DNA of 64,000 bases. It comes from a virus (taxonomy: Duplodnaviria > Caudoviricetes). Both the position numbers and the translations under genes were made by a program. Under the pieces are notes generated by a model, which worked only from the letters and a program-made list of their open reading frames with translations, did not search any database and had not been told where the DNA came from. The stretch lies in the IMG/VR virus record IMGVR_UViG_3300021400_000154, positions 1-64,000 of that record; one strand, written 5' to 3'. Within the stretch, counting starts at the first letter, position 1, and every line of letters begins with the position of its first letter. Of the stretch, positions 33,138 to 64,000 are shown piece by piece.

Positions 33138-34784
33138 ATGTAGAAAGCAAAGCTTGGTGTAATCACAAACTGGGATGTAATGGAAGAGCAAATCATTTTC
33201 TACAGGACGCACCTTGATGTCTTCATTGAAGATGCTTTTCCACCGATTAAACTCAGCAGGGACCAGCATGTGATCGCAAGACAGATTGGCAACTGCAGAG
33301 ACTCAGATGTTGTACAGAACCGTGGTGCTGGTAAGACATGGCTGATCGCACTCTGCTGCCATGCATTGTGTGTCCTGTACCCGCAGACATTTGTCGCGGT
33401 GTGTTCCAAGACAGCGAAACAGGCGAAGCTGGTTCTGGAAAAGCTGAAGTTCCTTGCTGAGCGCAACCCGAACATCGCGAACGAGCTCACGTCGAACAAC
33501 GCCAGGAGTCTTGTGCAGATCTCGACAGACAAGGGCAGAGCCGTATACAAGAACGGATCCAAGTTTGAATCCTTTGCGATGGAGAGTGCCCGTGGCCAGC
33601 GCGCAAAGATTATTGTGGTTGACGAGGCGCGGGACGTGGACCCTGAGATTGTGGATGCCGTTGTTTCTCCTTTAAAGAACTACCGTCGGGAGATCTCGTT
33701 CGAGAACAAGTTCCCGGATTTTGCTTCAAAGACGATTCGCATCACATCCGCATGCGAGAAAGCCCTCCCATATTATCAGGAGTTTGTGAAGACCCTGAAG
33801 AACATGGCCGCAGGGGATCAGCAGAGCTTTGCTTGCGCCTTGGATTGGAGGGCTGCTGTGGAGAACGGTGTCAACCAGGAGGAGTACTTCATCCACGAGC
33901 GCGAGAACAAACCCGATGTTGTCTTCGCCATGGAGTACGAGTCAAAGTTCGTAGGCTCCACCAATAACTCAGCCTTCCCGTATGATCTGACGCAGAAATG
34001 CCGGACGCTTCAGAAGGTTGAGCTGGAACAGCCGAAGAACTCCAAAAGCCGATATGTGATATCCCTGGACATCGCGACCAGCGATGCGGACACGGCTGAC
34101 AACTCCATTCTGAGTGTATTGAAGTTCATGGAGAAGTCAGACGGCACGTTCAACAGAAAGCTGGTCTACATGCGATCCTTCCATGGAGAATCGCTGGACG
34201 TGCTGGCAGAGGAAGTTCGTAAGCTGTATCACCTGCACTTCCCGAACGCGGAAAAGATCATATACGACGCCAGAGGTCTGGGTGACAGCCTGGACAGGTT
34301 CTTCGACAAGGAATGGGTGGACTATGCCAGCGAGAAGGAATACCCACCGCTGGTGGTTGATGACGAGCCGAACATGAATGCGGCTGCTCAGCCGATGCTG
34401 CATCCATTCCGGGCGATCCAGGCGCTGAACCAGCGGTTATACACAAACATGCGTGTGGCGCTGGAGAAACAAAGGATTGAACTTCCGATCCCCAGCAGGC
34501 TGCTTCAGTCGAAGGAGCTTGAGCGGGACGAGAAGCAAAAGATGTCCATGTATGAAAAGGCCATATATGCAGAGGCTGACGCCCTGCAGTTTGAGATGGG
34601 CAACATTGTCGCAAAGGTGTCTGCCAGCGGCAATGTATTGTACGATACTACAAACATTCGCCTGCACAAGGACCGGTACTCATCCCTGGCGATGGCGAAT
34701 GACTACATCAGCGAACTGGAGAAGGTCAACATCAAGCGTTTCAATCGTGGTGCGCAGTGTGTAGGCCTTGCCAGTGCGTTTTAA
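33138..34784 (+). CDS. terL: terminase large subunit (TAG at codon 2 if the RBS-led ATG is used)
   Basis: RGAGKT Walker A, IVVDE Walker B, SLDIA, YDARG, HKDRYSS nuclease motifs; GAGGTG RBS before ATG-TAG-AAA at 33138. Confidence 0.9.
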
Positions 34785-34835
34785 ACATGTGATTAATAAT
34801 CAGGGTACCTTAGTTTCGAAGAGGAGGTGAGGAGC

Positions 34836-35054
34836 ATGGCGCACGCTCTTGTGAGAAAAGACGACGAACCTATCAGCCCGAGTATATGCGAATGGCTGGT
34901 CGACGACGAAAACGATGTGTCGGAGCTCCCCACCATTATTTCAAAAGGCGCGCATGGGGAACCGACGTGTTACCCTGGCTCTGTCGCGTATGTGGCGGAC
35001 CTGTAGAAGATCTGGATGCTTGGCGTTGACAGCGTCTGGCACCAGACCGTATAA
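34836..35054 (+). CDS. small virion-region protein (1 in-frame TAG)
   Basis: GGAGG RBS; PGSVAYVADL*KIWMLG; TAG 35004-35006; TAA stop. Confidence 0.65.
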
Positions 35055-35068
35055 AGGGGTTGGTGCGT

Positions 35069-35323
35069 ATGGATGTCGTGACGTATGCAGCAGCAGTCGG
35101 GAAAGCGAAAAGCCTGATCGACGAACACATTCACGATCTCCCCATAGCGTCCAAGAGCAAGCTTGGGGCCGTCATGATTGGGGACAGTCTGGACATCTCC
35201 GGTACAGGCAAACTGTCAGTCCTGACAGCCAGCGACGCCGAAAGCGACAACACGCTTCCGATCACATCGGCAGCGGTTTATACGGAGATCGGAAACATTA
35301 ACGCACTGTTGGCAACGATATAA
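35069..35323 (+). CDS. small fibre-like protein
   Basis: LPIASKSKLGAVMIGDSLDISGTGKLSV, LPITSAAVY. Confidence 0.65.
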   Translation: MDVVTYAAAVGKAKSLIDEHIHDLPIASKSKLGAVMIGDSLDISGTGKLSVLTASDAESDNTLPITSAAVYTEIGNINALLATI

Positions 35324-35365
35324 TGCTGGTGCTTATGCACAGCGATTACGAGAGGTGATGGAAGC

Positions 35366-37183
35366 ATGAGCACCGCAACAGAGATTGCGCGACTTCAAAC
35401 GGCGCGCAATACCATCCGCAACAAAATGATCGAGATTGGCGTAGGCCAATAGACAGACCATCTGGACGATCTTGCTCAAGAGATCGATAACATACAGAAC
35501 AGGGGATCTGTCAACGCAACGGTTCGCGAAGGCGAATCCTACACGATCCCTGCGGGATACCACAGTGGTTCCGGTACGGTTACCGGTATTGCAGGTGGTG
35601 GCAACTATTCGCTGCAGGCGAAGTCTGCCACACCCACAAAGCAGCAGCAGAGCGTCACGCCAGACAACGGATACTATGGCCTGTCCAGCGTGACCGTTGC
35701 TCCGATCCCTGCTGCGTACCAGGACGTTACTTCTGTGACGGCAACAGCGGCTGACGTTCTGGCGAACAAAGTGATTGTGACGTCAACAGGCGCTGTTACG
35801 GCAGGCACCATGGCGAACAACGGCGCAATCACGAGAACGCTGGACACTACAACGACCAGCACAACGATTCCTGCCGGATACCATAATGGATCCGGTACGG
35901 TCAGTATCACAACGGAAACCAAGACTGCCACGCCGACCGAGGAAACACAGGTTGTGGCTCCTACGCCGGGGAGTGTGCTGTCGTCAGTAACGGTTAATCC
36001 GATTCCGGCTAACTATATTGACACGACCGATGCAACAGCTTCATCGCTGGAGATCCTGGAAGGGTATTCCGCATATGTGAACGGTGAACTGGTGGAAGGC
36101 GAGCTTCCGATTAATCCAGCGCCAGCTGTTACTTTGACTGTCAGCAATCAGGAGTATTCGCAGGAAGAAGGATACTACGAAGGTGAAGGAATCATCAATG
36201 TGGCATCTGATTCTTCATATGAACAGAACGCCGTTGTTCCGACAACATCTCAACAGCTGATCCAGGGTGAGAACAACGCTTTCCTTACGGCTGTGTTAGT
36301 TGATGCCATCCCGAGCGAATACCAGGATGTTTCCGGCGTTACCGCTACGGCTGGCGATGTACTGGATAGCGCGTCATTTGTAGACGCGAACGGTGATACA
36401 ATAACCGGTACAATTCCTGCGAATGCGGCTGTCACCGAAACGCTGGACACGTCGAACTCGACCTATACGATTGATCAGGCGTACTACAGCGAGGGCGGGA
36501 CTGTGACCGTCAACTACGAGACGATCGACGCTTCGGACCCTGTTGTTCCGACAACGGAACCGCAAATCATCACAGGAACCAATAACGCATTTCTTGATTC
36601 TGTGTGTGTTGACGCCATACCGTCAAACTTTGTAGATACGACTGACACTACGGCTACGGCTGCGAACATTCTCGAAGGCCAAACAGCCGCTATTAGCAGT
36701 GGCGTTGTGACTGGCACAATGCCAGATTGCAGTGGAACAGATGATGAGTTCCTGTTTCCAAATGATTTTGTTCTCGAAGGGCATACCATTCCTGCTCATA
36801 CCAGCTGCACTATAGCGCAAGGTTATCATGATGGTACTGGCACTGTGCAGATATTTGTTGAAACTGCTACGGCTACTCCCACAAAGCAAGCACAGACAAT
36901 TTATCCGTCCGATGCACACACTTTGTCTTACGTAACCGTCAACCCAATTCCAGACAACTACATCGACACTACGGACGCGACGGCGACAGCAGCTCAGATT
37001 CTGACAGGAGCCTCGGCATACGTGAATGGGGTGAAGGTCACCGGCGCAATGGCGAACAACGGGAGCGTGACAACCACGATTGACGGACTGACTTCTATGA
37101 GCGCAACTATACCTGCCGGGTATACGACGGGAGGTACAGTGACCCTCACGAACGATATTGAACAGGCTCTTGCCGCAATTTAA
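35366..37183 (+). CDS. Thr-rich repeat fibre/decoration protein (1 in-frame TAG)
   Basis: repeated IPxGYHxGxG...VTVxPIPxxYxDxTxxTAT units; TAG 35450-35452. Confidence 0.75.
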
Positions 37184-37195
37184 GGCGGTGAGTCT

Positions 37196-37708
37196 ATGAG
37201 CATACAGAGTGAGATCAATAGAATCGCTGACAATGTCGCTCGTGCCAAGGTTATGATCAGCAGCAAGGGCGTAACGGTTCCAAGCGGCGCGACATCTGAC
37301 GATCTCGCTCCGCTGATCCAGCAGATCAAGTCTGTCGAGGACGACGTCCTGATCGTGCACATCACATGGAACGGAAGCTCCGGGACTTCGGATCTCTAGT
37401 ATCGGGAGATCGCATTGGCCTTCGCAGGAGACTCGGAGGCACTAAGTGAGTTCATCGCAGGGTCTTCTGTTTTGGATGGCTACGGAACGCCGAGAAAGAT
37501 CTTCGCTATCGCCCAAATCACAGGACAGACAAGCGTCTACGGAACCTCCACTTTTTCCGGGACGTTGGTGGAAATGGACACGACGAATCAGAGGGCTGTC
37601 TTCGCTTTGTCCCGTTCTCTCCTGGTCTGGGTGGATGCCAACTATAGCGCGGGCATTATTCAGACGGTGACGCAGGACAGCACAACCAACGCCCTCAATA
37701 TTTCTTAA
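37196..37708 (+). CDS. hypothetical structural protein (1 in-frame TAG)
   Basis: 37196..37399 and 37415..37708 share a frame; N-terminus paralogous to the 35366 gene. Confidence 0.7.
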
Positions 37709-37719
37709 GGAGTGATAGC

Positions 37720-38592
37720 ATGGCACAGGACATCTCCCTGTTCGGATCAACCTATCAGTCTGTGCCGTCTGTCTCCTTACCAAAGGTCGGAGGCGGGACA
37801 GCGACGTTTACGGACGTTACCGGGACAACGGCTGTCGCTTCCGATGTGGCTCCCGGCAAGACGTTCTACCTTGCCAATGGTCAGGCCGCGACAGGCACGG
37901 CCACTGTTCAGCTTGTCCCGTATGCGATCCGCCCGGACGCAGAACTGGTGAAGACGGTGTACTGGGATCAGATGCTGGTGGCAGATCTTGGCATAACGAT
38001 CCCGGCCTACTCAACCAGCGCAAAAACTCTTAAGGCAAGCGCTGTGCTGGACACCTACGCCGGTGACAAGTCGAACTACAATTACTGGCTTGTGCTGCGG
38101 ACGCTGACGATTCCGCAGTACTCCATTGAGACCAAGGCCAAGGGCAGAGAGGAATACATGCTGACGAGCTACGTCTATGAGATGTGCGACTTGCCAGCCA
38201 ACAGTTTCCCGGCGGTCATTGACCCGACCAAGAAAGTGACGGCTGCGTCCGCCCCAGCCCCAGCCTTGGGTGTTGCCAGACACATCTACTGGTCAAGCGC
38301 CTCCGCTTTGGCTGTCAACACAGCTGTGACATACGGCCTTGGCGTGACTGTAGCTGCTCCAACATGGTCTGGGAACACGTTGAACATCAACAGCGGGTCG
38401 ATCACAATCCGTGGACATACGACCTATTTTGTCAACACATTTTATAATGCGCTGACGGATGCAAGGATTCAGGTGAAAGTGGACGTATACCGTGCGCCAA
38501 AGAATCATTTGAACGTTGACGGATGGAGTGCCCAACAGAATCTCAACCGTCTGATCGAAACCGTCAACAGCGCAACAATGAATTTATTGTAA
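37720..38592 (+). CDS. putative structural/fibre protein
   Basis: AAGGAG RBS; TTAVASDVAPGKTFY resembles the neighbouring repeat unit. Confidence 0.65.
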   Translation: MAQDISLFGSTYQSVPSVSLPKVGGGTATFTDVTGTTAVASDVAPGKTFYLANGQAATGTATVQLVPYAIRPDAELVKTVYWDQMLVADLGITIPAYSTSAKTLKASAVLDTYAGDKSNYNYWLVLRTLTIPQYSIETKAKGREEYMLTSYVYEMCDLPANSFPAVIDPTKKVTAASAPAPALGVARHIYWSSASALAVNTAVTYGLGVTVAAPTWSGNTLNINSGSITIRGHTTYFVNTFYNALTDARIQVKVDVYRAPKNHLNVDGWSAQQNLNRLIETVNSATMNLL

Positions 38593-38607
38593 CAGGAGGT
38601 GAGGCCC

Positions 38608-40266
38608 ATGGGCTTTTGGGATTTCATTGGTTCATTCAGGAGACAGCCCTCGCAGCAGGCGGAGCCTCCAGTAAAGAGAGAGAGGCCGGGAAAGGTCGCG
38701 GTCGGAGCGAAGGATGATGAGGAAAGGAAAGACATCCAGTCTTACAATAACTCAAACATCACGTTCTCCGGCGAACTTTACGGCTACGATTATGATTCGA
38801 TTCTTCGGAACAAGCAGCAGCACATATACGATCTGTATAAGCTGTAGGATTACTACACAGACGCAGATCCGCTGATTCACGGCATTGTGAAGCACGTTTA
38901 TGTGCCGTACAGCCTTGGCTCCTCCTGGACGCTTCATGGCGCTGCGGAGAAGACGATCAAGATCTATGAAGAATTCTATAAAAAGATTCGTCTCCGGGAA
39001 AAGCTCAGTTCGATTATGTTGGAATACTGGAAGTACGCGAACGTGTTTGTTTATGTGTACCACGGTGTTCCAATTACCCTGCCTCCGACAAAATGCAGGA
39101 TTGGTAACGTATCCTTCAACGGAGAGCCCGTGGTGGACTTCGACTGCCAGTCGATTTACAACGAATGGCGGCAGAAGAACTACGTCATCAAAGAGAACTG
39201 GGTGAAGGACAACGACCTGGAGACATACTTCGATGGCTTCCCGGAGGAAGTGCAGGAGGCCATCAATCGCGGAGAAATGTACGCGCAGCTGAACCCGAAG
39301 TACTGCAAGGTACTCCAGGCAGACAAGGAAACCTGGCAGCGCTATGCCATTCCGTTTATCTCCGCTTGTCTGCCAGCTCTGGCCAAGAAGGAACTCATTA
39401 ATAAGTACGAGGTAAAAATGCTGGATCTTGGCATCCATTCTTTCGTACATATCAACTATGGTGACGAGAAGAAGGGCGCCGATATGCTTCCTGAAATCAA
39501 TCAGTTAAGAGAGACCAGGAACATATTCTCCAGGGCCATGAGCAACTTCCCGCTGGCCGTCACAAACCAGCTGGCCCATGCGCATGTGGTCCAGCCAGAT
39601 CTGGATAACCTCTTCCAGTTCGACAAGTACAGAGACTGTAACAACGACATCCTGTCTGCCGGTGGCATCAGCGGTCTGCTGGTAGCCGGTCTCAGCACGG
39701 ACGGTTCAACGTTTGCTTCTGCCCAGGTGTCCATGCAGACAGCTGCGGCCAGGATCGAGTCCTGCCGGGATGAGGTCTGCGAACTGATGAATAAGATCAA
39801 TGTCTGCATCCAGGAAGAGCTGGCGAACACCCATGCCTATAACGTGAGCAAGGTTCCAGAGTTCAGCTTTATGCCGCTGGACATGGCCGGAAAGAAAGCG
39901 CTGCGCGAAGCCTGTGAGAAGCTCTGGAAGGAAGGCGTTGTCTCCACAGAGACATATATGACAGCCTTCGGATATTCCATGGAGCGCGAGACTTCCCGTC
40001 GCAAGAGCGAGGCCGGGAACGGCACCGATGAAGTGCTGGTTCCGAGGGATATTGTGAACGAGCTGAACAAGATCAAGCTCCAGCAGGAGACCTCTCCGCC
40101 TGAAGAGCCTGTTCAGCAACCTGAAGAGCCTGATCAACAGGAGACAGAAGAAACGCACATCGGCAGGCCAGAGCTTGACGACAGCGAACGGACTTCTGAC
40201 CCAGAGAACGCGATACGTTCCAAACAGCCCAAACCTTCCAACCCGGAAGGCAGTATGGGTGAGTAA
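38608..40266 (+). CDS. portal protein (1 in-frame TAG)
   Basis: position before protease and capsid, about 550 aa; TAG 38845-38847 joins two in-frame ORFs. Confidence 0.72.
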
Positions 40267-40512
40267 GCAAGTTTACGGTGATCGGCTTTCCTGATTCAGG
40301 AGGGGCATTTCCTCAAACCGTATTATTCCACGAATATAGCACTGAACAGTGGCTGGTGCGTAAACTGCCACCCTTATGTCTGCCTATAACTGTGCGTGGC
40401 AGGAAAAGGCAGATTTTCTTATTTGATTAAAACGGCTACGCCGTTTTAATAGATTAGCTCGCTTCGCTTGCTTTGCCCCCTACCATTGTGAGCAGAGAGA
40501 GCAATAAAGGGG

Positions 40513-41835
40513 ATGAGACCCATGAACAGGATGAAAACCTGTTTTGCCTCTGTCATCTCCGAAATCCAGCAGTCGGATATTTATCTGACCGTCAAAGCTC
40601 GGCTGTTCGAAACACCGGGAGCTAATCTTAATGGTGTTCGAGTTACTCCTGCGTTCCTTGACGAAATTGTGGAGCACCAGGAGAAGTATGTCGGGCTCCC
40701 ACTGTGCGCGGATGTAAAAAATCTCGCGAGCGGTGATTACCAGCACCTTGGTCATCTGTATGATGCGCGCACGGGAGAGTTTCACTCTGCCCAGATTGGC
40801 TCCTTCTATCGCTATGAGAAAGAGGAGACTGCGGATGGCGCTGCGCTTATCGGTTACGCGAGGATCATGAAAAGGAACAAAGCCGTCTGTAGGGCAATTT
40901 CCGAATTGTTCGCGGATGGGAAGCTGAAGTTCTCCTTTGAGATCTCCTGCGGAAGCTACCGAGAGCTTGAGGATGGGACCATTGAGATCGACGCTTCTGA
41001 GGATAACTTCCTCGAAGGCGCTGCCGTGGTGACGTTCCCGGCTTGCGAGAGCGCTGTTGCTTTGGATCTGGTGGCCGAGTGCAACAGTATAGCGGATGGC
41101 CGCAGAGAGGGTGAACAAGAGATGACAGATGTGAACGACACCGAAGTGATGGCTGAGGCCGTCGCGGAGGAGCAGGAGAGCCAGGAGGCTCTTGCTGCGA
41201 AGGTCGTGGTGGAGGATCATGTAGCGGTTGATACCGTGAAGGTGGTCGACACCGAGACCGGAAACGTTGTGGAGGACCATAACGTGCATGAGACTCACAC
41301 GGAAACGGTTGTCCAGGATCCAGCGCCGCTTGGCGACAACAGTGTGGCCGTGGTTGAGTTTGCCCAGACCGACGATGAAGCCTGCGCTGCTTGCTCCGAT
41401 GATAAGGAGAAGAAGTGCGGCGAAGAGGATGAGCCTGAAGAGGAGACTGCCTCTGTTGAGACTGCCAAGGAAGAGTCGATTGCTTCCGAGGAGCCTACCG
41501 AAGAAGTGGCTAACGCCACGGAGGAAGTGGCCATTGCCACTGAGGAGGCTACCGCTGAAGAGACCGGGTCTACCGAGGAGACAGCAGAGGTCGGCACGGA
41601 TTCCATGTCCGAGCTTGTCGCCTCGCTGCAGGAATCCGTCAATACGCTTCGTCGGGAGCTGGCCGAACTGAGGAATCAGCTGAATGACGCGCCTGCGAAG
41701 ATGATCGCTGAAGCGGCCACTTCCGGCGCCAATAAGGCGAATCCTTTTATGGCGAACATCCAGGAAGGCGAAGACCATCCAAAGTATTCGCTGCTGGAGA
41801 GTGAAGAGCCTGTCTCTTCCTATACTCTGCTGTGA
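40513..41835 (+). CDS. prohead protease/scaffold protein
   Basis: NLNG, FSFEI, AVVTFPA followed by long acidic and coiled-coil tail. Confidence 0.7.
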   Translation: MRPMNRMKTCFASVISEIQQSDIYLTVKARLFETPGANLNGVRVTPAFLDEIVEHQEKYVGLPLCADVKNLASGDYQHLGHLYDARTGEFHSAQIGSFYRYEKEETADGAALIGYARIMKRNKAVCRAISELFADGKLKFSFEISCGSYRELEDGTIEIDASEDNFLEGAAVVTFPACESAVALDLVAECNSIADGRREGEQEMTDVNDTEVMAEAVAEEQESQEALAAKVVVEDHVAVDTVKVVDTETGNVVEDHNVHETHTETVVQDPAPLGDNSVAVVEFAQTDDEACAACSDDKEKKCGEEDEPEEETASVETAKEESIASEEPTEEVANATEEVAIATEEATAEETGSTEETAEVGTDSMSELVASLQESVNTLRRELAELRNQLNDAPAKMIAEAATSGANKANPFMANIQEGEDHPKYSLLESEEPVSSYTLL

Positions 41836-41868
41836 CAGAGCAAATAAATTACGAGAGGAATGATAGCT

Positions 41869-42297
41869 ATGGCTGGATACATGACCGCCCTTCAGGGCTA
41901 CGTGTACGAAGGCGAGCTGGTGAACGGCGAGACCACCGCTATCGAGAACGGCATGTTTGTCGCTCCTACGATGGATAATGGCAAGCTGGTCATGAAGCTG
42001 CCCGCTGCCGACACCGATACTAAGCTGCTGTGCAAGGAAGTTACCACCATTTACGATGGCATTCCTGCCTACCGCTTTATCGTGAACGCTGTTGGCAAGA
42101 ACAACTATTTTGTCGAGAACGGTTTTGAGGTGAACAGCGCTGCTGTGTATGACACCACGCTGTACTCCACCGCTTCCGGCAAGTTTCTGCGTGCCCATCC
42201 GATTCAGGTGGGCGAAGAGTTTGTGACGGACAAGGTCAGCGGAACGCCTGTGGTTGGTACCGAGTATGGCGTTCTGGCGACTGGTCTCGTCGGTTAA
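41869..42297 (+). CDS. putative head decoration/stabilising protein
   Basis: between scaffold and capsid; IENGMFV motif. Confidence 0.55.
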   Translation: MAGYMTALQGYVYEGELVNGETTAIENGMFVAPTMDNGKLVMKLPAADTDTKLLCKEVTTIYDGIPAYRFIVNAVGKNNYFVENGFEVNSAAVYDTTLYSTASGKFLRAHPIQVGEEFVTDKVSGTPVVGTEYGVLATGLVG

Positions 42298-42311
42298 GGA
42301 GGTGCAAGACA

Positions 42312-43325
42312 ATGAGTGATATTATCGTGAATCGCGACAGCAAGCTCATTAAGGTGCTTGCGTCTCAGGCTCGCGGCGAGCGGGTCGACTAGGCCAACGT
42401 GGACGAGGCCGCTTCCATCATTGCCGAGCTGTAGAAGGACCTGAATCCCCAGAATCGGCATCAGATCGCGTAGGTCATCGCGTTTACCGTGGATGAGCTG
42501 CAGAAGCGCGAGCTGGATTTCCTGAACCAGGTGGCTGACCAGAAGTCTGTCGGCTATCAGGACAAGGCCGTGTTTAACATGCGCACTGGCGGCATCAAGG
42601 CCTACATCCAGGCCAAGGGTTCCACCACCAAGCGCAGCTATGTGGCAGATCGTCAGGTGACGGTTGAGACCGATGAGATCTCCGCCCGTCCCGCCATCAA
42701 CATCGTGGACCTGCGCGCTGGCCGTGTGAACATGGCCGACCTGATCCGCGAGGCGAACCGTGAGATCACCAACAAGAAGCTGGCTCTGGTGGAGAATGTG
42801 CTGCATACTGCCATGCAGACTTACTCCAGCCCATTCTATGCTGCCGGTACCGGCATCGTGAAGGCGACCCTGGACGCTCAGCTGGCGTACTTCCGTCGGC
42901 TGGGTCCTGTCACCATCCTGGGCGACCAGGCTGCTGTTGCTCAGCTGGCTGGCCTGACCGGCATGGAGATGAACCCCGGCGCGACCGGTGGCAACCTGTT
43001 CACCGAGCGCAGCCATGGCATGATCGATGAGATGAACGACAATGGCTACATCGGCCGTTACAATGGCGCTGCAGTGGTGTCCCTGGCGAACACCTACTTC
43101 GACGGCACCACCACCCCGGTGCTGGCCACTGACTGGCTCTACATCATCCCTGGTGGCATGAGCGGTGATGCCCGCAACCTGAAGATCGTCAACGAGGGCG
43201 GCGTGAATGCGTTCGAGTCCCAGAACATCGATGATCTGGTGTACGAGGTCCGCCTTGACACCTGGTTCGGCGCTGGCTTTATCTCCGGCAACCTGCCCAC
43301 CATCGGCGCTTACAAGATCAACTGA
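42312..43325 (+). CDS. major capsid protein (3 in-frame TAG)
   Basis: AAGGAGG RBS at ATG 42312; TAG at 42390, 42432, 42471; strong codon bias; followed by hairpin. Confidence 0.78.
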
Positions 43326-43333
43326 TCTCTTGA

Positions 43334-43380
43334 AGGGCAAAAGGGGCACCCTTATGGTGCCCCTCGCCCTGATTTATTTT
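43334..43380 (+). terminator. hairpin after capsid gene
   Basis: AGGGGCACC-CTTAT-GGTGCCCCT with T-rich tail. Confidence 0.6.
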
Positions 43381-43401
43381 ACAAGGAAGAAGGTATAAGG
43401 C

Positions 43402-43872
43402 ATGGATATGACACCCGCTGGATACACTGAGGCCCGTTATCGGGTTTACAACCGTTGCAAGTATGATATCGGTGTGACCGTTGCTGACGGTCGCCAGTAC
43501 AATATCAGGCCTGGCAGTTTTGCACTGATGACTGCTGCTGATATCGAGTATGTTGACAGCATTTGCCGAACAAAGAAGTTCTTCGGTTCCGGAATGCTTG
43601 TCGCTGTAGATGGAACCAACAAGGAGATTCCGCTGGATAAACTGAACATTGTAGAGGTTGATGAGAGCGAGAAGCACCTTACTGACGAGGAAATCACCGC
43701 TGCGCTCAAGAAGTCTGCAAAGGCTATGGAGGCATGGCTGAACGCCATTGACGATCCGGTTGAGCTGCATGCTATTTATACAGTCGCGTCTGAGATGGAC
43801 TTGCCGACGAGCAAGCTGAAGATTCTCAACGCGAAGATGCCAGACAAGGATTGGCTGGATCAGTTTAATTGA
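43402..43872 (+). CDS. hypothetical virion-region protein
   Basis: ORF in late operon. Confidence 0.7.
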   Translation: MDMTPAGYTEARYRVYNRCKYDIGVTVADGRQYNIRPGSFALMTAADIEYVDSICRTKKFFGSGMLVAVDGTNKEIPLDKLNIVEVDESEKHLTDEEITAALKKSAKAMEAWLNAIDDPVELHAIYTVASEMDLPTSKLKILNAKMPDKDWLDQFN

Positions 43873-43889
43873 TAAAGGAGGCGCTGCCC

Positions 43890-44339
43890 ATGACGAACGT
43901 AACAGAGCTTGCGATGGAGCTTAAGGACATCGTTTCCTGGCAGAGAACGCCAGAAGAAATGGAAGATGCGGACTTTATCAAGATGATCCTGAATGGCATC
44001 AAAACCCTGTACATTGACACGGGCAGAGCGTCTCAATACTCCAAAGACATGATCGTATACCCTGAAGAAACAGAAGAGGAACCTGTGGATGACACAATCT
44101 GGTTCACGGTGGATCTTCCGATCGACGAGGAAAAGTATGTGCTGATTGTAGCGCAGATTGCGTTCTTTAAGAAGGTGCAGAGCGATGTGAACAACATTGT
44201 GTCCTACACCACGGACGCGCTGAGTGTTGCGAACGCAGACAAGCCTTACGCTCATCTTCAGGACACGATCGCGAATCTTGAGAACGAGCGCCGGATCATC
44301 TTTTACAAGATGGTCTCCTACTCGTTCTACTCTGTTTGA
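43890..44339 (+). CDS. putative head-tail adaptor
   Basis: AAAGGAGG RBS; synteny only. Confidence 0.5.
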   Translation: MTNVTELAMELKDIVSWQRTPEEMEDADFIKMILNGIKTLYIDTGRASQYSKDMIVYPEETEEEPVDDTIWFTVDLPIDEEKYVLIVAQIAFFKKVQSDVNNIVSYTTDALSVANADKPYAHLQDTIANLENERRIIFYKMVSYSFYSV

Positions 44340-44348
44340 GGTGAGAGC

Positions 44349-44687
44349 ATGAACGAAGACTTTACTGTCCGTACTGAATACTATAACAAGGCGATGGACG
44401 CACGGGAGATCAGGACGTATCCGTTCGAGTCTTATACGGATCATATATACAACGAACTGAAATCCCTCGTGCGGGATGTCGAGTCTGTGTTATCTTATCT
44501 TCAGAACTACAAAGATAAAGATAACTGGGATCCGGAAGCTCTGGAAGACTTCCAGACGATTCGGAAGAAGCTGCTGAACAATGCGAACAACATTGGCCGC
44601 CTCCCACAGACCCTGTGTTACAAAGGGGTTCCATGCGCCAATGTCAGCATGAGCGAAATCATTGCAAAAATCATTAACGACCAGTGA
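44349..44687 (+). CDS. hypothetical protein
   Basis: GAGGTG RBS. Confidence 0.65.
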   Translation: MNEDFTVRTEYYNKAMDAREIRTYPFESYTDHIYNELKSLVRDVESVLSYLQNYKDKDNWDPEALEDFQTIRKKLLNNANNIGRLPQTLCYKGVPCANVSMSEIIAKIINDQ

Positions 44688-44705
44688 TGAAAGGAGCTGG
44701 CGCAA

Positions 44706-45440
44706 ATGTCAAAACCATATGTGCCAGCAGGCACGAAGACAAGGTTTTTCCGTCCGCCGACACTGGCGTAGGATTTTACGGAGTTTCTTGATGGGGACAT
44801 CCCGAACATGGTCATGGACTTTACGCTGTTGACCAACTGGTATGACCAGTTCAAGGAAGGCTACGAGCCGAAGATCATTCGCGGGGAGTTCTACACAGAG
44901 ACTGCCAAAAGTCGTTACACTAACACGGATAACAACGTAAACATCCGCTGTGATGTGGCCAGCGGCATCAAAAAAGGCGACATGGTGATCGCCAGTAACA
45001 ACAATGATGTGTATATCCTGGACTGGGAGATTACGCTGCAGAGCAATAACGCGCCTTCCCGAGCGCTCAGGTGCAACTTCGACCTGACGGTCAAAAGGCA
45101 TCATCCGGAGATTACGGATGACAGAGGCTATCTGCTCAAGGAGGAAGGCGACGATATCATTGTGGACGCGCTTCCTGCGAACGGATACTTCTACGACGGC
45201 AGAAACGCGAGATATCTTGCGTCCAACGGAACGCCTGGTGTTGCGCCCGAGGTGAACGCTCTGGTAACCGTGCAGTACAACGAGCAGACCAAGAACCTTC
45301 GAGTGGACGATGTGTTCAAATGGGGCGGCGACATCTACCAGATCACAGATATCTCTGTGGCAGGTTTGAACAGGGCTGGTACCAGCGGCTGTCTGAACCT
45401 ACAGACCATACAGAAACCGGGTGGCATCTATGACAAATAA
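44706..45440 (+). CDS. putative head-closure protein (1 in-frame TAG)
   Basis: AAAGGAG RBS at ATG 44706; TAG 44769-44771; synteny. Confidence 0.6.
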
Positions 45441-45741
45441 CATGAACGGCCTGGTTGAGACAGTGAAGCGTTCTGTAAAAGACGCTGTATTCAAGAGAGT
45501 CAACGAGATGGCGAGATCTCTTCAAAGTAACCTTTTGTATGAGTTCCAGAACGATCTGGTTTTTGCAGGGCACTCAAAAGAGTTTGAACCGCTGTCCAGC
45601 ATTACGGTTTCTGTAGAAGAAAACGGAGATAACCAATATAAGCTTGTGATGGATATGAGCAACCTGAACGACAAACAGAAGGAACTGTTTGAGTTTTATT
45701 TCAAGAACGCAAAGTCACGCGTGTTAGGAGGTGATGCTTGA
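45430..45741 (+). CDS. hypothetical neck-region protein
   Basis: overlap-coupled ORF. Confidence 0.6.
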   Translation: MTNNMNGLVETVKRSVKDAVFKRVNEMARSLQSNLLYEFQNDLVFAGHSKEFEPLSSITVSVEENGDNQYKLVMDMSNLNDKQKELFEFYFKNAKSRVLGGDA

Positions 45742-46214
45742 TGCCGGCTACATGGATCCATGATTGGAACGAGATTATTCGTGATGTGATATATCCCGAC
45801 ACCGAGCTTCGCCGCCTGATGCGGCTGCCGAAGGGTACCGGCATTATCGAGTTCATCGATAAGTATTTTATGAGATCCGGTTATTCCAACCAGACGCTTG
45901 AGCATGAGGACGTTCGAATCGTCTATGGAGATACCGGCGCGCATGAAACAGAAGTCCCCAACGTGACGAAGAACGAAATGAGTTTCGATATCTATGTCAA
46001 GCAGGAGCACCTGCATAACGTCGGAAACGACAGGCTGCAATACAGGACACACCTGATTGCAGCGAGACTGATTGAGCTTTTGACCAAGCATGGTACAAGC
46101 GGCAAGTATTTAGGCGGGTATCGGTTCTGGGTCAAGAACGAGATGGATCTTGGCACACGAACGACAGGTTATGCACGGTACTGCGTCACGTTCTACTACA
46201 TGCGAGTATATTAA
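45738..46214 (+). CDS. putative tail terminator
   Basis: GGAGG RBS; immediately before tail-tube genes. Confidence 0.5.
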   Translation: MMPATWIHDWNEIIRDVIYPDTELRRLMRLPKGTGIIEFIDKYFMRSGYSNQTLEHEDVRIVYGDTGAHETEVPNVTKNEMSFDIYVKQEHLHNVGNDRLQYRTHLIAARLIELLTKHGTSGKYLGGYRFWVKNEMDLGTRTTGYARYCVTFYYMRVY

Positions 46215-46228
46215 GGAGGCGACGTTTC

Positions 46229-47143
46229 ATGAGCACTTATGTTCCAGCCTGGAAAGGCTACATCGCAGACGTTCCGCAACTCTGGTTCAAGAGATGCGAT
46301 GGCAACGTCTATCACTTTGACGAGCTGACCCAGGCCAGCGTTCAGCCGGACACGAACACGATCGACATCAACGCCGGTCAGAGTCTTTATCCGGTGGCCT
46401 ATCTTCCCGGCCAGTCCACTATGACGATTGATGTCACCAGCGGACAGTTTGATGCTGATATGTTTGCGATGGCGAACAACGCGTAGTTTGAGGATGGGTC
46501 AATCGAGATCCCCGGCTCTGCTTCGGAAGCCATCGAAATGTATACGCAAGAGATTGCGCAAGGCATGACTGTTATGCACATCAAGCTGCACAACTTCCTG
46601 GCCTACAAGACGGCAAGCGTTCAATTTTCTCTTGATGGGGAGGACGTCGGTGACCCTATTGTTTGTTCTGACACACAGGACGCGGACAGCAAAACGAGCT
46701 TCAAAAATGCTGTCGCTCAGTTTTTCCCGCATGATCCAGGCCAGCAGATGGGAGTTATTATGCCTGAAACCGGTGATGATGTTGACATACAGATTAACTT
46801 CAACTCTGCTCCTTCTCTTCCGGAGATGCCAGCTGACGGTGGCACAATGGAGTAGGAAGGTCGTGTTTCCAGCGGCAAGGTCGCGAAGTTTGACAACAAG
46901 TCCGCTGCCGTCGGCGAGGCTGTTCTGAAGTGGCCTGTATATGCCAGCGGAGACGACTGTTCCGACTCTGCGATCAAGGGCTACCTGATCATGCACATGT
47001 ATCGTGCGCGGATTACGAGAATGCCTGGGTTTGACGATTCATACAAGAGCGCCTCCACGTTCCAGTTCCAGCTCTCTGCCATGGATGCGAAGCGCGATGA
47101 CGGGAAGATTTACGAGCTGGCGTATAAGGAAAACGATCTGTAA
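46229..47143 (+). CDS. tail tube-like protein, paralog 1 (2 in-frame TAG)
   Basis: aligns at both ends with the 47225 gene only when TAG 46484 and 46853 are read through. Confidence 0.72.
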
Positions 47144-47224
47144 CAATATGATTGACTACACGAAGTCTGTAGGGGGACAGCGTGTTTTCAATATATACAA
47201 AAATAAACCAAAGGAGTGTTGCAT

Positions 47225-47992
47225 ATGCCTAATACATATGTGCCCGCCTACAAGGGCTACATTGCGGACGTGCCGCAGGTCTGGTTCAAGCGTTGCGATG
47301 GCGAAGTGTTCCACTATGACGAGATCACTCAGGCTTCCGTGAACCCACAGACTAACTTCACTGAAATCAACGCCGGTTGGTAGCTGTATCCCGTGGCTTA
47401 TCTGCCCGGTCAGTCCACCATGGAGATCTCCATGACATCTGGTCAGTTCAACGCCGATCTGTTCGCGATGGCGAACAAGACCAAGTTTAAGACGATTGGT
47501 CAGGATCCTCAGGACACCGAGAAGTATAGCACCTTCAAGACCGAGTCTCTGACTCCTGACGCCACCACTCACAAGGTGACCCTGGCCGAGACTCCTGTTG
47601 AAGGCACCGTTGCCATTCGTGGCCTGGAGCTGACCACTGACTTCACCGTGTCCGGCAAGGAAGTCACCTTCACCGATGATAAGATTGCCGGTCCCGTCGA
47701 GATCTCTTATGAGTATGAGGTGAATGGCGCCAACGTGATCAAGATTGACAACAAGTCTGCTGCTACCGGCGAGGCCGTCATGAAGTGGCCTGTGTACGGT
47801 GCTGGAGACGACTGCACCGACAGCGCTGTGAAGGGCTATGTGATTCTGCGGATGTACCGTTGCCGGGTCACCCAGATGCCTGGGTTCGACACCAGCTATA
47901 AGAGCGCGGCCACCAATGCCGTGACCTTCTCCGCTATGGACGCGAAGCGCGACGACGAGAAGATCTACGAGATCGCCTACATCGACGCCTAA
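47225..47992 (+). CDS. major tail tube protein, paralog 2 (1 in-frame TAG)
   Basis: AAGGAG RBS; TAG 47381-47383; highly biased codons; precedes chaperone. Confidence 0.75.
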
Positions 47993-48084: not shown

Positions 48085-48111
48085 ATTACGTATAAGGAAA
48101 GAAGGATTTAT

Positions 48112-49594: not shown

Positions 49595-49627
49595 TTTTTT
49601 GTCGTAAGGCCAATACTGATAACGGCT

Positions 49628-50455
49628 TTAATGCAAATACATGTAAAACAATATATCTGGGCCGAACGCATATTTATCTATGGCTATGTTTTGCGAAGGA
49701 ACGAATACTTTTTTTACTGGACTTTTGTAGAAACAAAATTTAGCAATCGATGTTATGCTCGGTGGCAAGATTACAGTATGTAAATTTTCAAAACCGCAAA
49801 ACGCCTCCTCTTCGATTGTAAGGATTCCATTTCCAATGATCAAACAGGACAATTGTTCTGCATGCCCGTTTGGATACCAGGAAGGAACTTTATCGTCTAT
49901 CAGCTCATAAAAATTAAAAGATCTTCTCCCTATCGTTGTAATGTCCGTGCCGTTAATCGTACTAGGGACACAGAGAATCTCTTCGCCTGATAAATCTCCG
50001 TAGGTCAACTTATTTCCTGTTACTTTCCAAAACGTAGTTATTGTGTTTCCGTTCAGCAACGTACCGTTTGCTTTATAAGCGAAATGTAAAAGCAAATCAG
50101 AATATGACATAGAAATCCTTTTAGCGTCATATATTAGCCTATCTGACAACTTGAAGTATAAGCGTATTCTATGAATGCCATTTACACAATTATGAGATAT
50201 TAAATGCGCAGTTTGCTCAGTTCGCCCATTGGAAAAACGAGACGCTGCATCTGCAGAAATGGTATGAAAAGCATTCATATCTATATCCCTTTGTTTGGTG
50301 ATCATGTATTCACCAAACAACATATGCTGATATTGGTTGTTGCTTTTACTCGTCGAAACAGTATATTGTAATAAAGCTATTTGTTTGTATTCGGCATCGC
50401 TTATTTCGACTTCTGCAACAACACATCCGTCAATCATGAAACAGTTAATCTTCAT
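49628..50455 (-). CDS. BspA/LRR_5-like repeat protein, moron-like
   Basis: ITTIGRRSF, ILTIEEEAFCGFENLHTVILPPSITSIAKFCF; AT-rich, antisense to virion operon. Confidence 0.7.
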   Translation of the reverse strand: MKINCFMIDGCVVAEVEISDAEYKQIALLQYTVSTSKSNNQYQHMLFGEYMITKQRDIDMNAFHTISADAASRFSNGRTEQTAHLISHNCVNGIHRIRLYFKLSDRLIYDAKRISMSYSDLLLHFAYKANGTLLNGNTITTFWKVTGNKLTYGDLSGEEILCVPSTINGTDITTIGRRSFNFYELIDDKVPSWYPNGHAEQLSCLIIGNGILTIEEEAFCGFENLHTVILPPSITSIAKFCFYKSPVKKVFVPSQNIAIDKYAFGPDILFYMYLH

Positions 50456-50477
50456 GATAACACCCCCCTTATGTGGT

Positions 50478-50506
50478 TATATAACATAAGTTTGCCTTAC
50501 TGTCAA
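50478..50506 (-). promoter_or_regulatory. sigma70/sigmaA-type promoter of the LRR gene
   Basis: TTGACA-17 bp-TATATA with TG extension on minus strand. Confidence 0.65.
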
Positions 50507-50529
50507 CACTTCGAAAAGGAGGTAATAAT

Positions 50530-59500: not shown

Positions 59501-62500
59501 CTCTTGAAGCCAGGCTACAAGCTTTGCGCGATCAACAATCATTAGCTGATACGCAGTCTGAAGAAGCAGAGCAGAGAGCTCTCGGAAAAAACAAAAAGTA
59601 TCAAGCCGCAAGAGGAAAATACGATCTCGCAAGACAAGCTTACGATGCCGCGTTGAAAAACAATGATTCTGATTAGATGGCAAACGCAGCACAAGGTATG
59701 CGCGACGCCGAATAGGAAATGCAAAGAATCGCGGCAACATCTATAAGCGCGCGAGCTTCCCTCTCTGCTCTTGGGCAAACGTTTGCTAGGGTTGGCATGC
59801 AGTTCGGAAGGCGCATATTCCAGGCAGCCATTCGTGAAGCGACTCAGTTTGTCAAAGTATATGATCAAACCATGCATCAGATTCAAGCCATAACCATGAA
59901 ATCCAACCAGGAGATGGCTACAGTCAGATCTTCTACGATAACTCAAGCTATAGGTTTAAAAACCTCTGCGACAAACGTTGCACAGGTCAAATCAGAGTTA
60001 TATCGGCAAGGGTTATCTGATTCGCAAGTTAATGACAGAACTGATTCGATTATAAAGTTTTCTGCTGTCACAGGGATGAAGGCAACGCAAGCAACAAAAG
60101 CTCTCACTACGGCGTTGCAAAGCGGACTTGTTAATAATATTCATGAGGCAATGGACGCGATGGTCGCTCTGGGCGATAGCGCAGCAACGACAGCTGAAGA
60201 AATAGCAAAAGGTATGCAAAAATCTGCTGCGGCTGCAAAAGTTGCAGGCGTGTCTTACGGTGAACTGACATCCATGTTAACAGTTATCACCAGCAAAACT
60301 CAGCTTGGCGGCAATCAAGCAGGCACAGCGCTTCAAACGATATTCAGCCGGATGCGCAGAGTAACAAACGAAGGTATAACCAGTGATGAAGGCGGAGAAA
60401 TCACAAGCGTCAATGATGTCGAAGAATCTCTTCAACGTGTTGGCATTTCTATGAGAACAGACGCTAACAGTTTCAGAGATACGTTGGATATCCTTCGCGA
60501 TCTTGCAAAAGTTTGGAATGATTTGAATGACATACAGAAGAACAATATCATGTATAATATGGCTGGCGCAAGACAGAGCAATATGTTCTCTGCTTTAATG
60601 GAAGGATTGGCTGATGATAATGGTAAGACATTTGATAAATATCTTGGGCTTACTGAGGATAGTGATGGGATAACTCAGAGCAAATACGAAATCGTAATAT
60701 CAAACATCAATGCAGAACTCGACGAACTGAAAACCACATTCGACGGGCTTGTAGAAGCAGTCACAAACAATGGATTGTTAACGTTCTTCATCGACCTCGC
60801 AACAACCATTACTGGTTTTGTCGCAGGAGTTTCCGATGGATTAGGAGCTATCCCTTAGCTTCTCTGGGCTATTGCTGCTGTGTTAGACGTGGTGAAGATT
60901 AAAAGCGCTGCAGTGGCCGTATTCAAAGGATTGGCGAATCCTGCTACGTTAATAGGGCCGATTTTAGGCCTTCTGGCTGTTGCAGGAGTAGGCGCTTTGG
61001 GATCACACATAAGTGGATCAAGAAAAGCAACAGAACAAAATACTGAACTGAAACGACAAGCCGATTCTGACTTTCTAGAACATGCATCCAGTGTTCGTAC
61101 GGATAGCATAGAAAAAGTGGAAAAAGCACTTGACAAAGTAAAGCAAATGCAAAAGATAGATGTCGATATGGAAACAGAAGAAGCCCAAAAAGCGCTGGAA
61201 GATCTCAAAAGAAGCACAAAGGCGATAGGTGGCAATATCTCTGATTGGCCAAATGCCGTAAGAGAGGCTACAAAAGCTATAAATGAAGCGAGAAAAGAAA
61301 GTGCACTATTTTTACTCGGACTTGGGGATACTGGGGCAAAGGATCTCCAGACAAAATATAATAATAATGTTTAGACATATAATGGTGCCATCTAGTAGTC
61401 TGATTTTGAAGACGGCGGTATATTATATGGCAGATCAATTTTCCAGGGTATATCTCAAAAGGACTTAAAACCTTACTCAACACAAGACGGTAAAGGCGGC
61501 TATACTTACGAAAGCTTGATAAATGATCATTAGAAACTTGACATGAAAGCGCCTCGTAAATCTATGACTTATAGAGATGCGATGAAACAAGATTTAGAAA
61601 ACATTGGTATAAAGACAGAGGGGCTGTAGGACACAGACTTGATCGATTTGCACGGTGTATACTATTACAGTGGCCTTTCCCAAAACTTTAGGCGCGTTAA
61701 ATACAACAAGAATGCAGGCAATCAAAATCGTGATAACCAGGAATATGCTTACGAATTTTTTAAACAGCTTTCTGACAACACAAATCAGCAAAATATAACC
61801 ACTTCATCATTGAAACGTGTAGAATCATGGTTTGATCTGTGGACTAAAACAGCAGGATATGAAAACTTTATGAATGCTCATGGTGGACATATAGGTTCAT
61901 ATACAGCAGGTGGTTCCTTTGAAGACTTTGCATCTGTTATGGCAAAACAACAATACGAAGGAGTTAGAAATGAAGTTATTGGGTTATGGGATTAGGACGA
62001 AACAAGAAACGAAATCGCAACAAGAGCTGCTGAAGAAAATGAAATTCTGTCTAATATGGACAGCTTGTTCGTTCAGTCGCTTATGACTAACGATGATGCA
62101 TATGGGCCAGCTGTAAAACTTTGGACTTAGGGTAACGAAAAGTTTAAGGATCGCATTGTTTCCGAATTTCTTGATTACGCAAAGGACCAAGGTATTACGC
62201 CGAATTATACAAATGTTAAAGAGTGGCTAATGAAACAAATTGAAACTTATACTTCTGATGAATTCCTGCGGATGTATGGGTCTCCCGAAGACTTTGAGTA
62301 TTATTATTCAGATTCAGAAGGCAATCCATTGTTTGGTGCGCATGATTTATAGCGAGAAGCAATCCTTGAGGCGTACAACGAAGAAGTTGCGCTTGCCGAG
62401 AAAAACGGTAACACCAAACGGGTTGAGGTACTTAAAGCGCTGCAAGAAGAAGTAAGTAAGTATAATCCTTTGAAGACAAACAAAATATATACGTCATCAG

Positions 62501-64000
62501 GGGCGCAAGTTGGCGGTACTATTGGAAGTATTTTCGGAAGCACGAATCTTTCTTCTAAAGACTTGGGATACAGAACTGAATACGCACAACTGCTTGCGAT
62601 GGCTAACGGAGTAACAGACTATGACGCATTTAAAAATACAGAAGGATACACGACATTGACGGCTCTCGCGCAAAACGATACTGCTCTGACGACTTTAATG
62701 CAAGATGCTAATACCGGACGAGCTGGCCTTGCTGATATTATTGACTATCTTGAGAAAAAAGTCTATGGCGAAAACTATATACAAACAACAGCGTCTTCAG
62801 GTAGGGCCATATCTGAAAATAGACTTGATATTGCAGCGCTTAAAGATGAAACTAGTCCTTTGCCTGCTTCTGTTGCCAAGCGCGTCGCAAGCGCGATTAA
62901 TCAAAACGAATCGTATGTTTATCAAAATAGACAGGCCGCTGCAGCTATGCTTGAGTAGACTACCGATCAAAACCAACGTGGTCTTGAGACAAAAGCTCGT
63001 GGATGGATAAGCGATCTATATCGGTTTGCGTAGAGAGAAGATATGCTTAAGGACTTAAGAAAGAACTATTAGAAAATGTCTGACGAAGAAATAGCAACGA
63101 TGTATGGGAGCTGGGGCATTACAAACAGATCGATGGCTGCGGCTGTTTCCAATAACAGTAAAGTCCTTAGTTCTGATTAGGAAGCAATGAATTATATCCA
63201 AGCTCTTGCTGCCCAGCTTCCTGGATTTGAATATGATAAGCAAACTGGCGGAATCAAGTTTACAGGTATGGATGTAAAAGGTTATGAAGATGTTTTGTCT
63301 TTTGCTCCCGTTATAACAAATCATGATGTAAGAGACCTTGCTGAGACAATGTTGAATGGTGCGGAAGGGAAAACGTGGAACGATTTTGTTAATAAAGCCA
63401 ATCAAGATATAGCAAGACAGTTAATGCAGCAAAATCCTGAACTGTTCACGTATATGACGATGACTGATGCTCAACGAAGAACAGAGGAAGGACAAGCCGC
63501 ATATTATACTGCAAGACAGCAACTTCTTACGTCTGAACTCCAAACGCTTGAAAAAATCGGGCAAATCCTTCCAGAGGCCACTCAAGTTGCACAACAACTT
63601 TCGAGCGGATCTTATGGAGATCAGATTGCAGGCATTAGTGGTTTTGGGTCTATGGTGCAAAGCTATGGTTAGATAGTTGCTCTTAGGCAGAAAATATCTT
63701 AGATGACAAACTTAAGCGATGAAGAATGGAAATAGCAAGGCGGAGAAGCCTACGTCAACAAGCTAGCCACGATGTTAGGATTGGATCCTTAGCTTTTTGA
63801 CAAGAGTAATGTTGACGAACTGCTTGAGCAGGGCAAAAAGAAAGCAGACAAAATATCTAACGGTTTGCAACAAATTATTGAATCTGTATTCGACATAGAT
63901 TTATCCAACTACGACAATCTGGAAGGCGTTATCGCTAAGCTCGAAGAAAGCGGAGACGCGTTATCAAGCTTTTTTGCCATACTATTAAGATCCCTTTCTG
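50530..64000 (+). CDS. giant protein (>4400 aa, truncated by window): two-barrel RNAP domain + PD-(D/E)xK nuclease domain + coiled coil + tape-measure domain; about 50 in-frame TAG
   Basis: AAAGGAGG RBS; all long ORF fragments from 50707 to 63672 share one frame and are separated only by TAG; GGGDVDGD at 53467-53490; TP901-like TMP block at 59719-60858. Confidence 0.85.

Follow-up and report, generated by a model that had tools for sequence, protein, structure and literature searches.

The first 64,000 nucleotides (hereafter the window) of the virus record IMGVR_UViG_3300021400_000154, a single contig of 110,614 bp referred to as G000, raise the question of how a phage decodes TAG, as this codon occurs in frame in its terminase, portal, capsid-like, and tail genes. 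To our knowledge, stop recoding in phages has been described only as TAG read as glutamine and TGA read as tryptophan, plus TGA to glycine in the phages of code-25 hosts. Because only these codes have been described, virome gene callers and annotation pipelines offer just the corresponding tables. From the letters of the window, an earlier note proposed that TAG is a sense codon of the virion operon and that it stands for serine rather than glutamine. In this study, we followed up the proposal in the whole genome and its relatives. Serine is the best fit to the TAG columns in alignments of related phages, and the genome carries a single tRNA with a CUA anticodon, built like a serine tRNA. Based on these comparisons, TAG is very probably read as serine in G000, through a tRNA of its own that was copied from a serine tRNA.

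TAG in late and early genes

When translated with table 11, the late block of G000 is shattered, and reading TAG as a sense codon turns it into a tidy operon. The plus-strand late genes from position 33138 onward (Table 1) are open when only TAA and TGA are counted as stops, and none of the listed frames from TerL to the giant tail gene holds an internal TAA or TGA, which confirms the in-frame TAGs of terminase, portal, capsid, tail tubes, and giant gene described in the earlier note. Homology-supported open reading frames (ORFs) on this strand contain 84 TAGs in 14,876 codons. The start of TerL is instructive: its ATG at 33138 follows a GAGGTG ribosome-binding site and is itself followed immediately by TAG, and the TerL proteins of relatives begin with M-V-I/V-K/R-P-G at the same aligned position. 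The claim of the earlier note on the terminase also holds.

Five complete or near-complete relatives were used for comparison, namely G001 (= L028), G002 (= L003), G003, G004, and G005. In the giant gene of G000, we counted 57 in-frame TAGs, 52 of them within the window (the hand count in the earlier note was about 50), no TAA, and a TGA solely at the end, while the other two frames hold 100–234 TAA or TGA each. The homologues in G003, G004, and G005 (5924, 5460, and 6372 aa; standard code) contain no TAG, and that of G002 contains 36 TAGs in 6648 codons; across the five relatives, the homologues span 5460–6648 aa. In Pfam, only the PhageMin_Tail domain is matched.

The minus-strand blocks hold 93 ORFs, whose stops are TGA (52), TAA (36), and TAG (5). 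Here, 11 TAGs occur in 11,475 codons, mostly outside the coding part, and three are clearly internal. The terminal TAG of the primase-helicase coincides exactly with the end of all homologues, and the next TAA or TGA lies 4 codons on. Early and replication genes are largely free of internal TAG; the exceptions are the PhoH-like gene, with two, and the RemA-like gene, whose single internal TAG faces S, S, and A in relatives. TAG use is thus split by gene class and not strictly by strand. The assignment of sense TAG to the virion operon stands for the late genes, but it is too narrow, as at least three internal TAGs lie in these minus-strand genes.

The five minus-strand ORFs that end in TAG do so at 360–362, 16138, and 29818 of the window and at 92533 and 93137 of the genome. 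In three of the five, a TAA or TGA follows 1–4 codons downstream and could act as a back-up stop on late readthrough. Readthrough of the TAG at 29818 would join an 83-codon ORF to a 1074-aa RNA polymerase gene.

In the mechanism that we propose, the phage would use two readings of TAG, stop in early genes and sense in late genes. Most minus-strand genes, among them those for the primase-helicase, Pol III alpha, NrdD, and two YonO-like RNA polymerases, would be translated with the standard code, and a few of them end in TAG. The host seryl-tRNA synthetase (SerRS) would charge tRNA(CUA) with serine, and once this tRNA is made, ribosomes would read UAG as serine in competition with the host release factor 1 (RF1). 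Full translation of the terminase, portal, capsid-like, tail tube, tape-measure, tail/baseplate, PhoH-like, and RemA-like proteins would then be possible. The presumed order of expression and the possible role of TAG as a timing gate follow the timing model of Borges et al. (bioRxiv 10.1101/2021.08.26.457843).

In the late genes other than the giant gene (33138–47992 and genome 66970–75568), 13 of the 20 TAGs fall within the first 30% of their frames (binomial p = 0.0013). This 5′ clustering fits a gate that aborts translation early without the suppressor; alternatively, it could reflect more permissive N-termini.

Serine at TAG columns and the tRNA(CUA)

To assign the amino acid at clade level, homologous ORFs were translated with X in place of TAG and aligned, and at 42 TAG columns of G000, G002, L001, L002, L004, L008, and L022 we determined the consensus of those relatives that have no TAG there. 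Candidate residues were scored by means of substitution tables derived from sense codons in these alignments. The consensus is Ser in 14 columns, Asp in 5, Gly in 4, Asn in 4, Val in 3, and other residues in 12. Ser has the highest log-likelihood, followed by Asn at −16.6, and Gln falls below −24. Among the TAG columns that are at least 60% conserved, Ser accounts for 11 of 23; for the true Ser codons of the clade, this share is 40%. In addition, G000 was tested alone, pairwise against G002–G005, at locally well-aligned sites of homology-supported genes. Ser ranks first against each of the four genomes, and the log-likelihood of Gln minus that of Ser is −21.2 for G002, −4.4 for G003, −4.7 for G004, and −11.6 for G005. 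Opposite the G000 TAGs, G002 carries Ser 9 times, Ala 6, Gln 3, Asn 2, Thr 2, Lys 2, Glu 1, and Val 1. Collectively, the residue tallies of both the clade and G000 bear out the preference for serine over glutamine voiced in the earlier note.

Individual late-gene sites show how these columns are composed. At TAG 38845 of the portal, relatives carry Ser (15) or Ala (11), and at TAG 44769, which is also a TAG in G002, they carry Ser (8) or Ala (9). In the capsid-like gene, TAG 42390 is common to six contigs and corresponds to Ser in 16 of 20 relatives, and the column of TAG 42432 is variable. TAG 47381 of tail-tube paralogue B, common to five contigs, faces Ser in 11 of 12 relatives. The same Ser is found within the genome itself, where INAGQSLYPVAYLPG of paralogue A aligns with INAGW[TAG]LYPVAYLPG of paralogue B, so this paralogue pair from the earlier note is real. 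Its other pair, 35450 against 37286, exists but aligns weakly.

The closest relative, L008, is 90% identical to G000 over 5001 aligned codons and has 11 TAGs in common with it. At the nine discordant TAG sites, the sense codon is TCG four times and TCT, TCC, GCG, CCT, and CAA once each, that is, a Ser codon in 6 of 9; TCG differs from TAG by a single step, and the two would be synonyms if TAG encodes serine. No closer relatives of the giant gene were found in a search of viral contigs, and one metagenome scanned for it yielded a single fragment, L095, at 48% identity. L095 contains 32 TAGs in 3000 codons. In a well-aligned stretch of the tape-measure protein, its TAGs face S, T, S, A, and T of G000, and a TAG-TAG pair of G000 at 61393–61398 faces S-S in L095.

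The composition of the giant protein points in the same direction. Ser and TAG together make up 7.0% of it, as compared with 6.7–7.5% Ser in the standard-code homologues, while Gln and TAG together would make up 7.9%, as compared with 5.0–6.7% Gln. Furthermore, an alignment-free classifier based on neighbour residues and trained on the same proteins was run on 124 TAG sites from G000, G002, and L095, with scores of 7.0 for Thr, 2.8 for Ser, −8.0 for Asp, and −12.4 for Gln. In held-out controls, true Ser sets are called Ser in 19 of 25 cases and Thr in 2 of 25, and true Gln sets are never called Ser or Thr.

The earlier note had tied its reading to a CUA tRNA that combines G73 with a long variable arm. 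The whole genome contains exactly one such tRNA, next to a tRNA-Ser(UGA). ARAGORN reports eight tRNAs in G000, with a single CUA anticodon at 91017–91103 on the minus strand. When fitted to the Rfam tRNA model, tRNA(CUA) has a 7-bp acceptor stem and a G at model position 71, corresponding to tRNA position 73. Its fold includes a 3-bp D stem with an 11-nt D loop, a 5-bp anticodon stem, a normal T arm, and a long variable arm with a 5-bp stem and a 4-nt loop. Bacterial SerRS reads the long variable arm and G73 and ignores the anticodon, and the class II Leu and Tyr tRNAs carry A73. The variable-arm loops of the CUA tRNAs are GCGA, GGGA, and GGAA and lack CUG or UUG, unlike a Gln anticodon loop.

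The tRNA-Ser(UGA) lies 3 nt from tRNA(CUA), has the same length, and also carries G73. This tandem is found in G002 as well and in L094, a contig from the same sample as L008. The CUA tRNAs of G000 and G002 are 72–77% identical to the Ser(UGA) tRNAs, or 74–84% identical when the variable arm is left out; in contrast, they are 40–48% identical to phage tRNA-Leu(UAA), which carries A73. Among G000, G002, and L094, compensatory changes preserve the pairing of the variable-arm and T stems, which is to be expected if the tRNA works. Judged by this similarity and adjacency, tRNA(CUA) arose by duplication of the phage tRNA-Ser(UGA) beside it. No CUA tRNA is present in the standard-code relatives G003, G004, and G005, and the anticodon of the phage tRNA-Gln is still UUG. 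Additionally, searches of G000, G002, and G001 for PF00472 (release factor) and PF00587 (class II synthetase core) gave no match, which implies reliance on the host SerRS and competition with the host RF1. In its build, tRNA(CUA) would be a substrate for charging by SerRS.

Two other identities of this tRNA were considered and rejected on structural grounds. tRNA-Pyl (pyrrolysine) has a short variable loop and a compact D loop, which do not agree with the long variable arm and the 11-nt D loop; the label "Pyl" assigned by ARAGORN derives from the anticodon only. tRNA-Sec (selenocysteine) has 8/5 acceptor/T arms, a 6-bp D stem, and the anticodon UCA, which do not agree with the 7-bp acceptor stem, the 3-bp D stem, and the anticodon CUA.

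Misfits and alternative readings

Several observations weigh against serine. The amino acid at TAG is deduced from sequence comparison. The acceptor stem of tRNA(CUA), with G1-C72, C2-G71, and G3-C70, differs from the Ser set of E. coli, which may not be that of the host. In global MAFFT alignments of the giant gene, G000 alone scores Gln at or above Ser. The TAG at 42471 in the capsid-like gene, common to G000 and L008, is CAG (Gln) in 24 of 24 relatives; the TAG at genome position 68128 is Gln in 3 of 5 relatives; the TAGs at giant codons 875 and 4763 stand at Gln positions; and the TAG at genome position 99148 in the PhoH-like gene is Trp in 3 of 4 relatives. Finally, 57 suppression events in one protein demand very efficient readthrough against RF1.

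Some of these points can be traced further. The giant gene is only 26–43% identical to its homologues, and the G002 copy is split by the record ends; for these reasons, circular records were rotated, and locally well-aligned sites were kept. Once sites are restricted to those that are locally well aligned and homology supported, the Gln signal of the global alignments is gone. The TAGs that do not fit are a minority, and the residues of relatives at these sites are one mutation from TAG (Gln CAG and Trp TGG, both by transition). Differences between TAG and CAG also occur among very close relatives, such as L002 and L004 (98% identity), and between G000 with L008 on one side and L022 on the other. 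Either these sites can accept serine once a transition has occurred, or UAG is read in part by near-cognate tRNAs.

The most familiar alternative is that TAG encodes glutamine (code 15), as in the described amber-recoded phages. The Gln positions and TAG/CAG differences listed above, together with the global alignments of G000 alone, are what this reading would explain. However, the sole CUA tRNA belongs to class II and is of serine type, with a 4-nt variable-arm loop unlike a Gln anticodon loop, while the tRNA-Gln of the phage retains UUG. Gln lies more than 24 log units under Ser at clade level and 4.4–21.2 units under it at the filtered G000 sites, the discordant sites with L008 show Ser codons in 6 of 9 and a Gln codon in 1 of 9, and the context classifier places Gln 15–19 units under Ser and Thr. 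Glutamine is thus highly improbable and is rejected as the main meaning, though a few TAGs at invariant Gln or Trp positions do not fit serine. Another alternative is mixed decoding, in which the phage tRNA would insert Ser at most UAGs and near-cognate host tRNAs (Gln, Trp, Tyr) would also read the codon at a useful rate, so that part of the ancestral residue would persist at some sites. Non-Ser alignments are enriched for codons one step from TAG (CAG, TGG, TAY, and AAG), and some such positions are invariant in all relatives. However, the same pattern is predicted by simple mutation, namely transitions of CAG and TGG to TAG, together with tolerated Ser, and we regard mixed decoding as unlikely, albeit the most credible of the alternatives.

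The remaining alternatives carry very little weight. TAG might stand for another residue, either Thr or a modified residue that a Sec-like or Pyl-like route would form on a tRNA charged with Ser. In favour of this, the context classifier ranks Thr slightly over Ser, and ARAGORN, besides its label, draws an 8-bp acceptor stem. In the clade alignments, however, Thr is 17–21 units under Ser, and a class II build with G73 does not match the architecture of Thr, Pyl, or Sec tRNAs; ThrRS, the synthetase for Thr, moreover reads the anticodon. We consider such a residue extremely improbable, slightly more so than glutamine. That the TAGs are real stops, reflecting disrupted genes, assembly errors, or numerous short genes, has nothing in its favour beyond the standard code itself. 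Against it, the frames stay open for thousands of codons while other frames hold hundreds of TAA or TGA, homology to uninterrupted standard-code proteins runs across the TAGs, and a matching suppressor tRNA is present. Several TAG positions are also common to independently assembled contigs from other samples, which rules out assembly error. The chance that the TAGs are real stops is vanishingly small.

A probable second reassignment, known systems, and genome layout

A search of IMG/VR with the portal yielded 30 relatives at 43–85% identity. Phages of this kind are present in the rumen samples 3300021255, 3300031867, and 3300021387 of IMG. The portal tree groups the TAG=Ser genomes in a single clade (support 89/92) that lies within the standard-code relatives, and a separate deep clade (support 100/100) also bears in-frame TAGs, which align with Leu. 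In this second clade, L101 (IMGVR_UViG_3300028833_005988, L101:1–19823) shows 40 TAGs in frame over 4490 aligned codons; its conserved TAG columns are Leu in 25 of 34, with Met next at −37. For L102, G001, L100, and L025/26, Leu is also best. The single tRNA of the L101 record is a tRNA(CUA) with A73 (Table 1), and the tRNA(CUA) of G001, though not the same, likewise carries A73. Leucyl-tRNA synthetase (LeuRS), like SerRS, ignores the anticodon. Collectively, these rumen phages of about 100 kb form a family that probably reassigned amber at least two times, once in the Ser clade (G000, G002, L001, L002, L008, and L095) and once in the deep Leu clade (L101, L102, G001, L100, and L025/26), with each tRNA(CUA) built on the body of a tRNA whose synthetase is blind to the anticodon.

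Further peculiarities were seen in this family. In the tRNA cluster of G001 (L040:943–2772), the tRNAs encode CCA, the "Leu" anticodons CAA and UAA belong to tRNAs whose variable loops are short, one anticodon is AUA, and one tRNA has an 8-nt anticodon loop, for which ARAGORN gives the four-base anticodon "caaa". In L027:1–7866, in-frame TAGs stand where Tyr is invariant; Tyr accounts for 28 of 28 residues in one alignment and for 2 of the 3 conserved columns. They could represent a third meaning, Tyr, or recent mutations, and the sites are too few to tell.

The E. coli amber suppressor supD (serU) is a tRNA-Ser whose anticodon is CUA; it places Ser at UAG, as SerRS ignores the anticodon. The corresponding reference is Capecchi and Gussin 1965, as cited in PMC13092985. 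Similar to supD, the phage tRNA combines a serine tRNA body with a CUA anticodon. Unlike supD, a laboratory mutant acting on rare nonsense mutations, it is a conserved phage gene beside its Ser(UGA) parent and would serve about 80 or more designed-in codons. For leucine, TAG=Leu is known from NCBI tables 16 and 22 (chlorophycean and Scenedesmus mitochondria). Similar to these, the sister clade (L101, G001, and others) shows TAG where relatives have Leu and carries a tRNA(CUA) with A73; however, tables 16 and 22 are organelle codes, while the sister clade consists of phages and G000 itself would use Ser.

Compared with the recoded gut phages of Borges et al. (crAss-like, Lak, Garnet, Amethyst, and others), the arrangement is similar: amber is concentrated in late and structural genes, early genes are standard, a tRNA(CUA) but no synthetase is encoded by the phage, and close relatives use the standard code. 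In contrast to their TAG=Gln (code 15) and TGA=Trp (code 4), the amino acid here would be Ser, and the GC content of G000 is about 50%, not low. That survey reports only TAG as Gln and TGA as Trp among phages whose code is not that of the host. Our literature search found no description of a natural TAG=Ser code, in agreement with the earlier note, and none of TAG=Leu in a phage. A suppressor derived from a tRNA with an anticodon-blind synthetase needs no side reaction of glutaminyl-tRNA synthetase. Late-gene recoding with a phage suppressor tRNA is already known; what is new is the amino acid, the origin of the tRNA, and two meanings of amber in one family.

If these readings are correct, a natural TAG=Ser code, present in no NCBI translation table, and a phage TAG=Leu code would join the known codes. 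The meaning of a recoded stop would be evolutionarily labile among related phages and set by the body of the recruited tRNA, and such genomes would be mistranslated even by recoding-aware tools. SerRS and LeuRS, being blind to the anticodon, would make it easy for a code to change in nature, in line with what laboratory suppressors have long suggested. Moreover, the phage would provide a compact natural suppressor tRNA and, with TerL codon 2 and the 57 tape-measure TAGs, an experimental handle on code switching as a possible late-gene gate.

The genome is laid out in minus-strand blocks at 1–31 kb and 82–110 kb and a plus-strand block at 31–82 kb (Table 1). The minus-strand blocks carry the primase-helicase, two YonO/RdRP-like RNA polymerases, Pol III alpha, NrdD, ClpP, a PD-(D/E)XK nuclease, and an array of seven tRNAs (genome 91017–94076) to which tRNA(CUA) belongs. 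In addition to the terminase, portal, and capsid-like genes, the two tail-tube paralogues, and the giant tape-measure gene, the plus-strand block contains SPbeta-like tail genes (YomG_N, Prophage_tail, and Gp10_C). The record ends overlap by 107 nt, and the same length in several relatives indicates that the G000 record is circular or circularly permuted. TerL is at most 31% identical to that of any isolate, with Clostridium phage c-st as the top match followed by SPbeta-like phages.

Table 1. Positions of the genes and tRNAs discussed (window and genome numbering coincide; L-numbers denote separate locus coordinates)
Feature	Position	Strand	Remarks
Primase-helicase (Toprim + DnaB_C)	360–2198	−	early gene; ends in TAG (360–362)
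tRNA-Met(CAU)	33043–33114	+	sole tRNA within the window
TerL	33138–34784	+	TAG at codon 2 (33141); phrog_2; tblastn to Clostridium phage c-st TerL
Late-module gene, function not assigned	35366–37183	+	one in-frame TAG, 35450
Small late-module gene	37196–37708	+	one in-frame TAG, 37397
Portal	38599–40266	+	TAG 38845; phrog_2739
Capsid-like protein	42312–43325	+	TAGs 42390, 42432, 42471; phrog_4088, function not annotated
Late gene	44706–45440	+	TAG 44769
Tail-tube-like paralogue A	46229–47143	+	TAGs 46484, 46853; phrog_2729
Tail-tube-like paralogue B	47216–47992	+	TAG 47381
Giant tail gene (PhageMin_Tail, tape-measure)	50530–66969 (past window end)	+	5479 codons
tRNA(CUA)	genome 91018–91102, outside the window (L090:1018–1102)	−	Rfam tRNA model, 58 bits
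PhoH-like gene	genome 98492–99442 (L096:3492–4442)	−	2 TAGs upstream of PhoH domain
RemA-like gene	genome 103627–104139 (L096:8627–9139)	−	1 TAG inside domain
tRNA(CUA) of L101	L104:1501–1585		single tRNA of the record; A73, encoded CCA, enlarged variable region

One relative, L092 (JAZQFG010000001.1, 100,103 bp), whose portal is 57% identical, was binned in an Acutalibacteraceae metagenome-assembled genome. The contig is probably itself a phage, so the bin is a weak host hint only. Among the minus-strand genes of the window, a 945-aa gene at 4790–7627 matches the Pfam RdRP family. Three adjoining minus-strand ORFs of 326, 529, and 598 aa occupy 8377–12814 of the window; the second and third (9372–10961 and 11018–12814) match phrog_16683 and, more weakly, amidoligase families. 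Together with the first (8377–9357), they have homologues only in G002 among the complete relatives.

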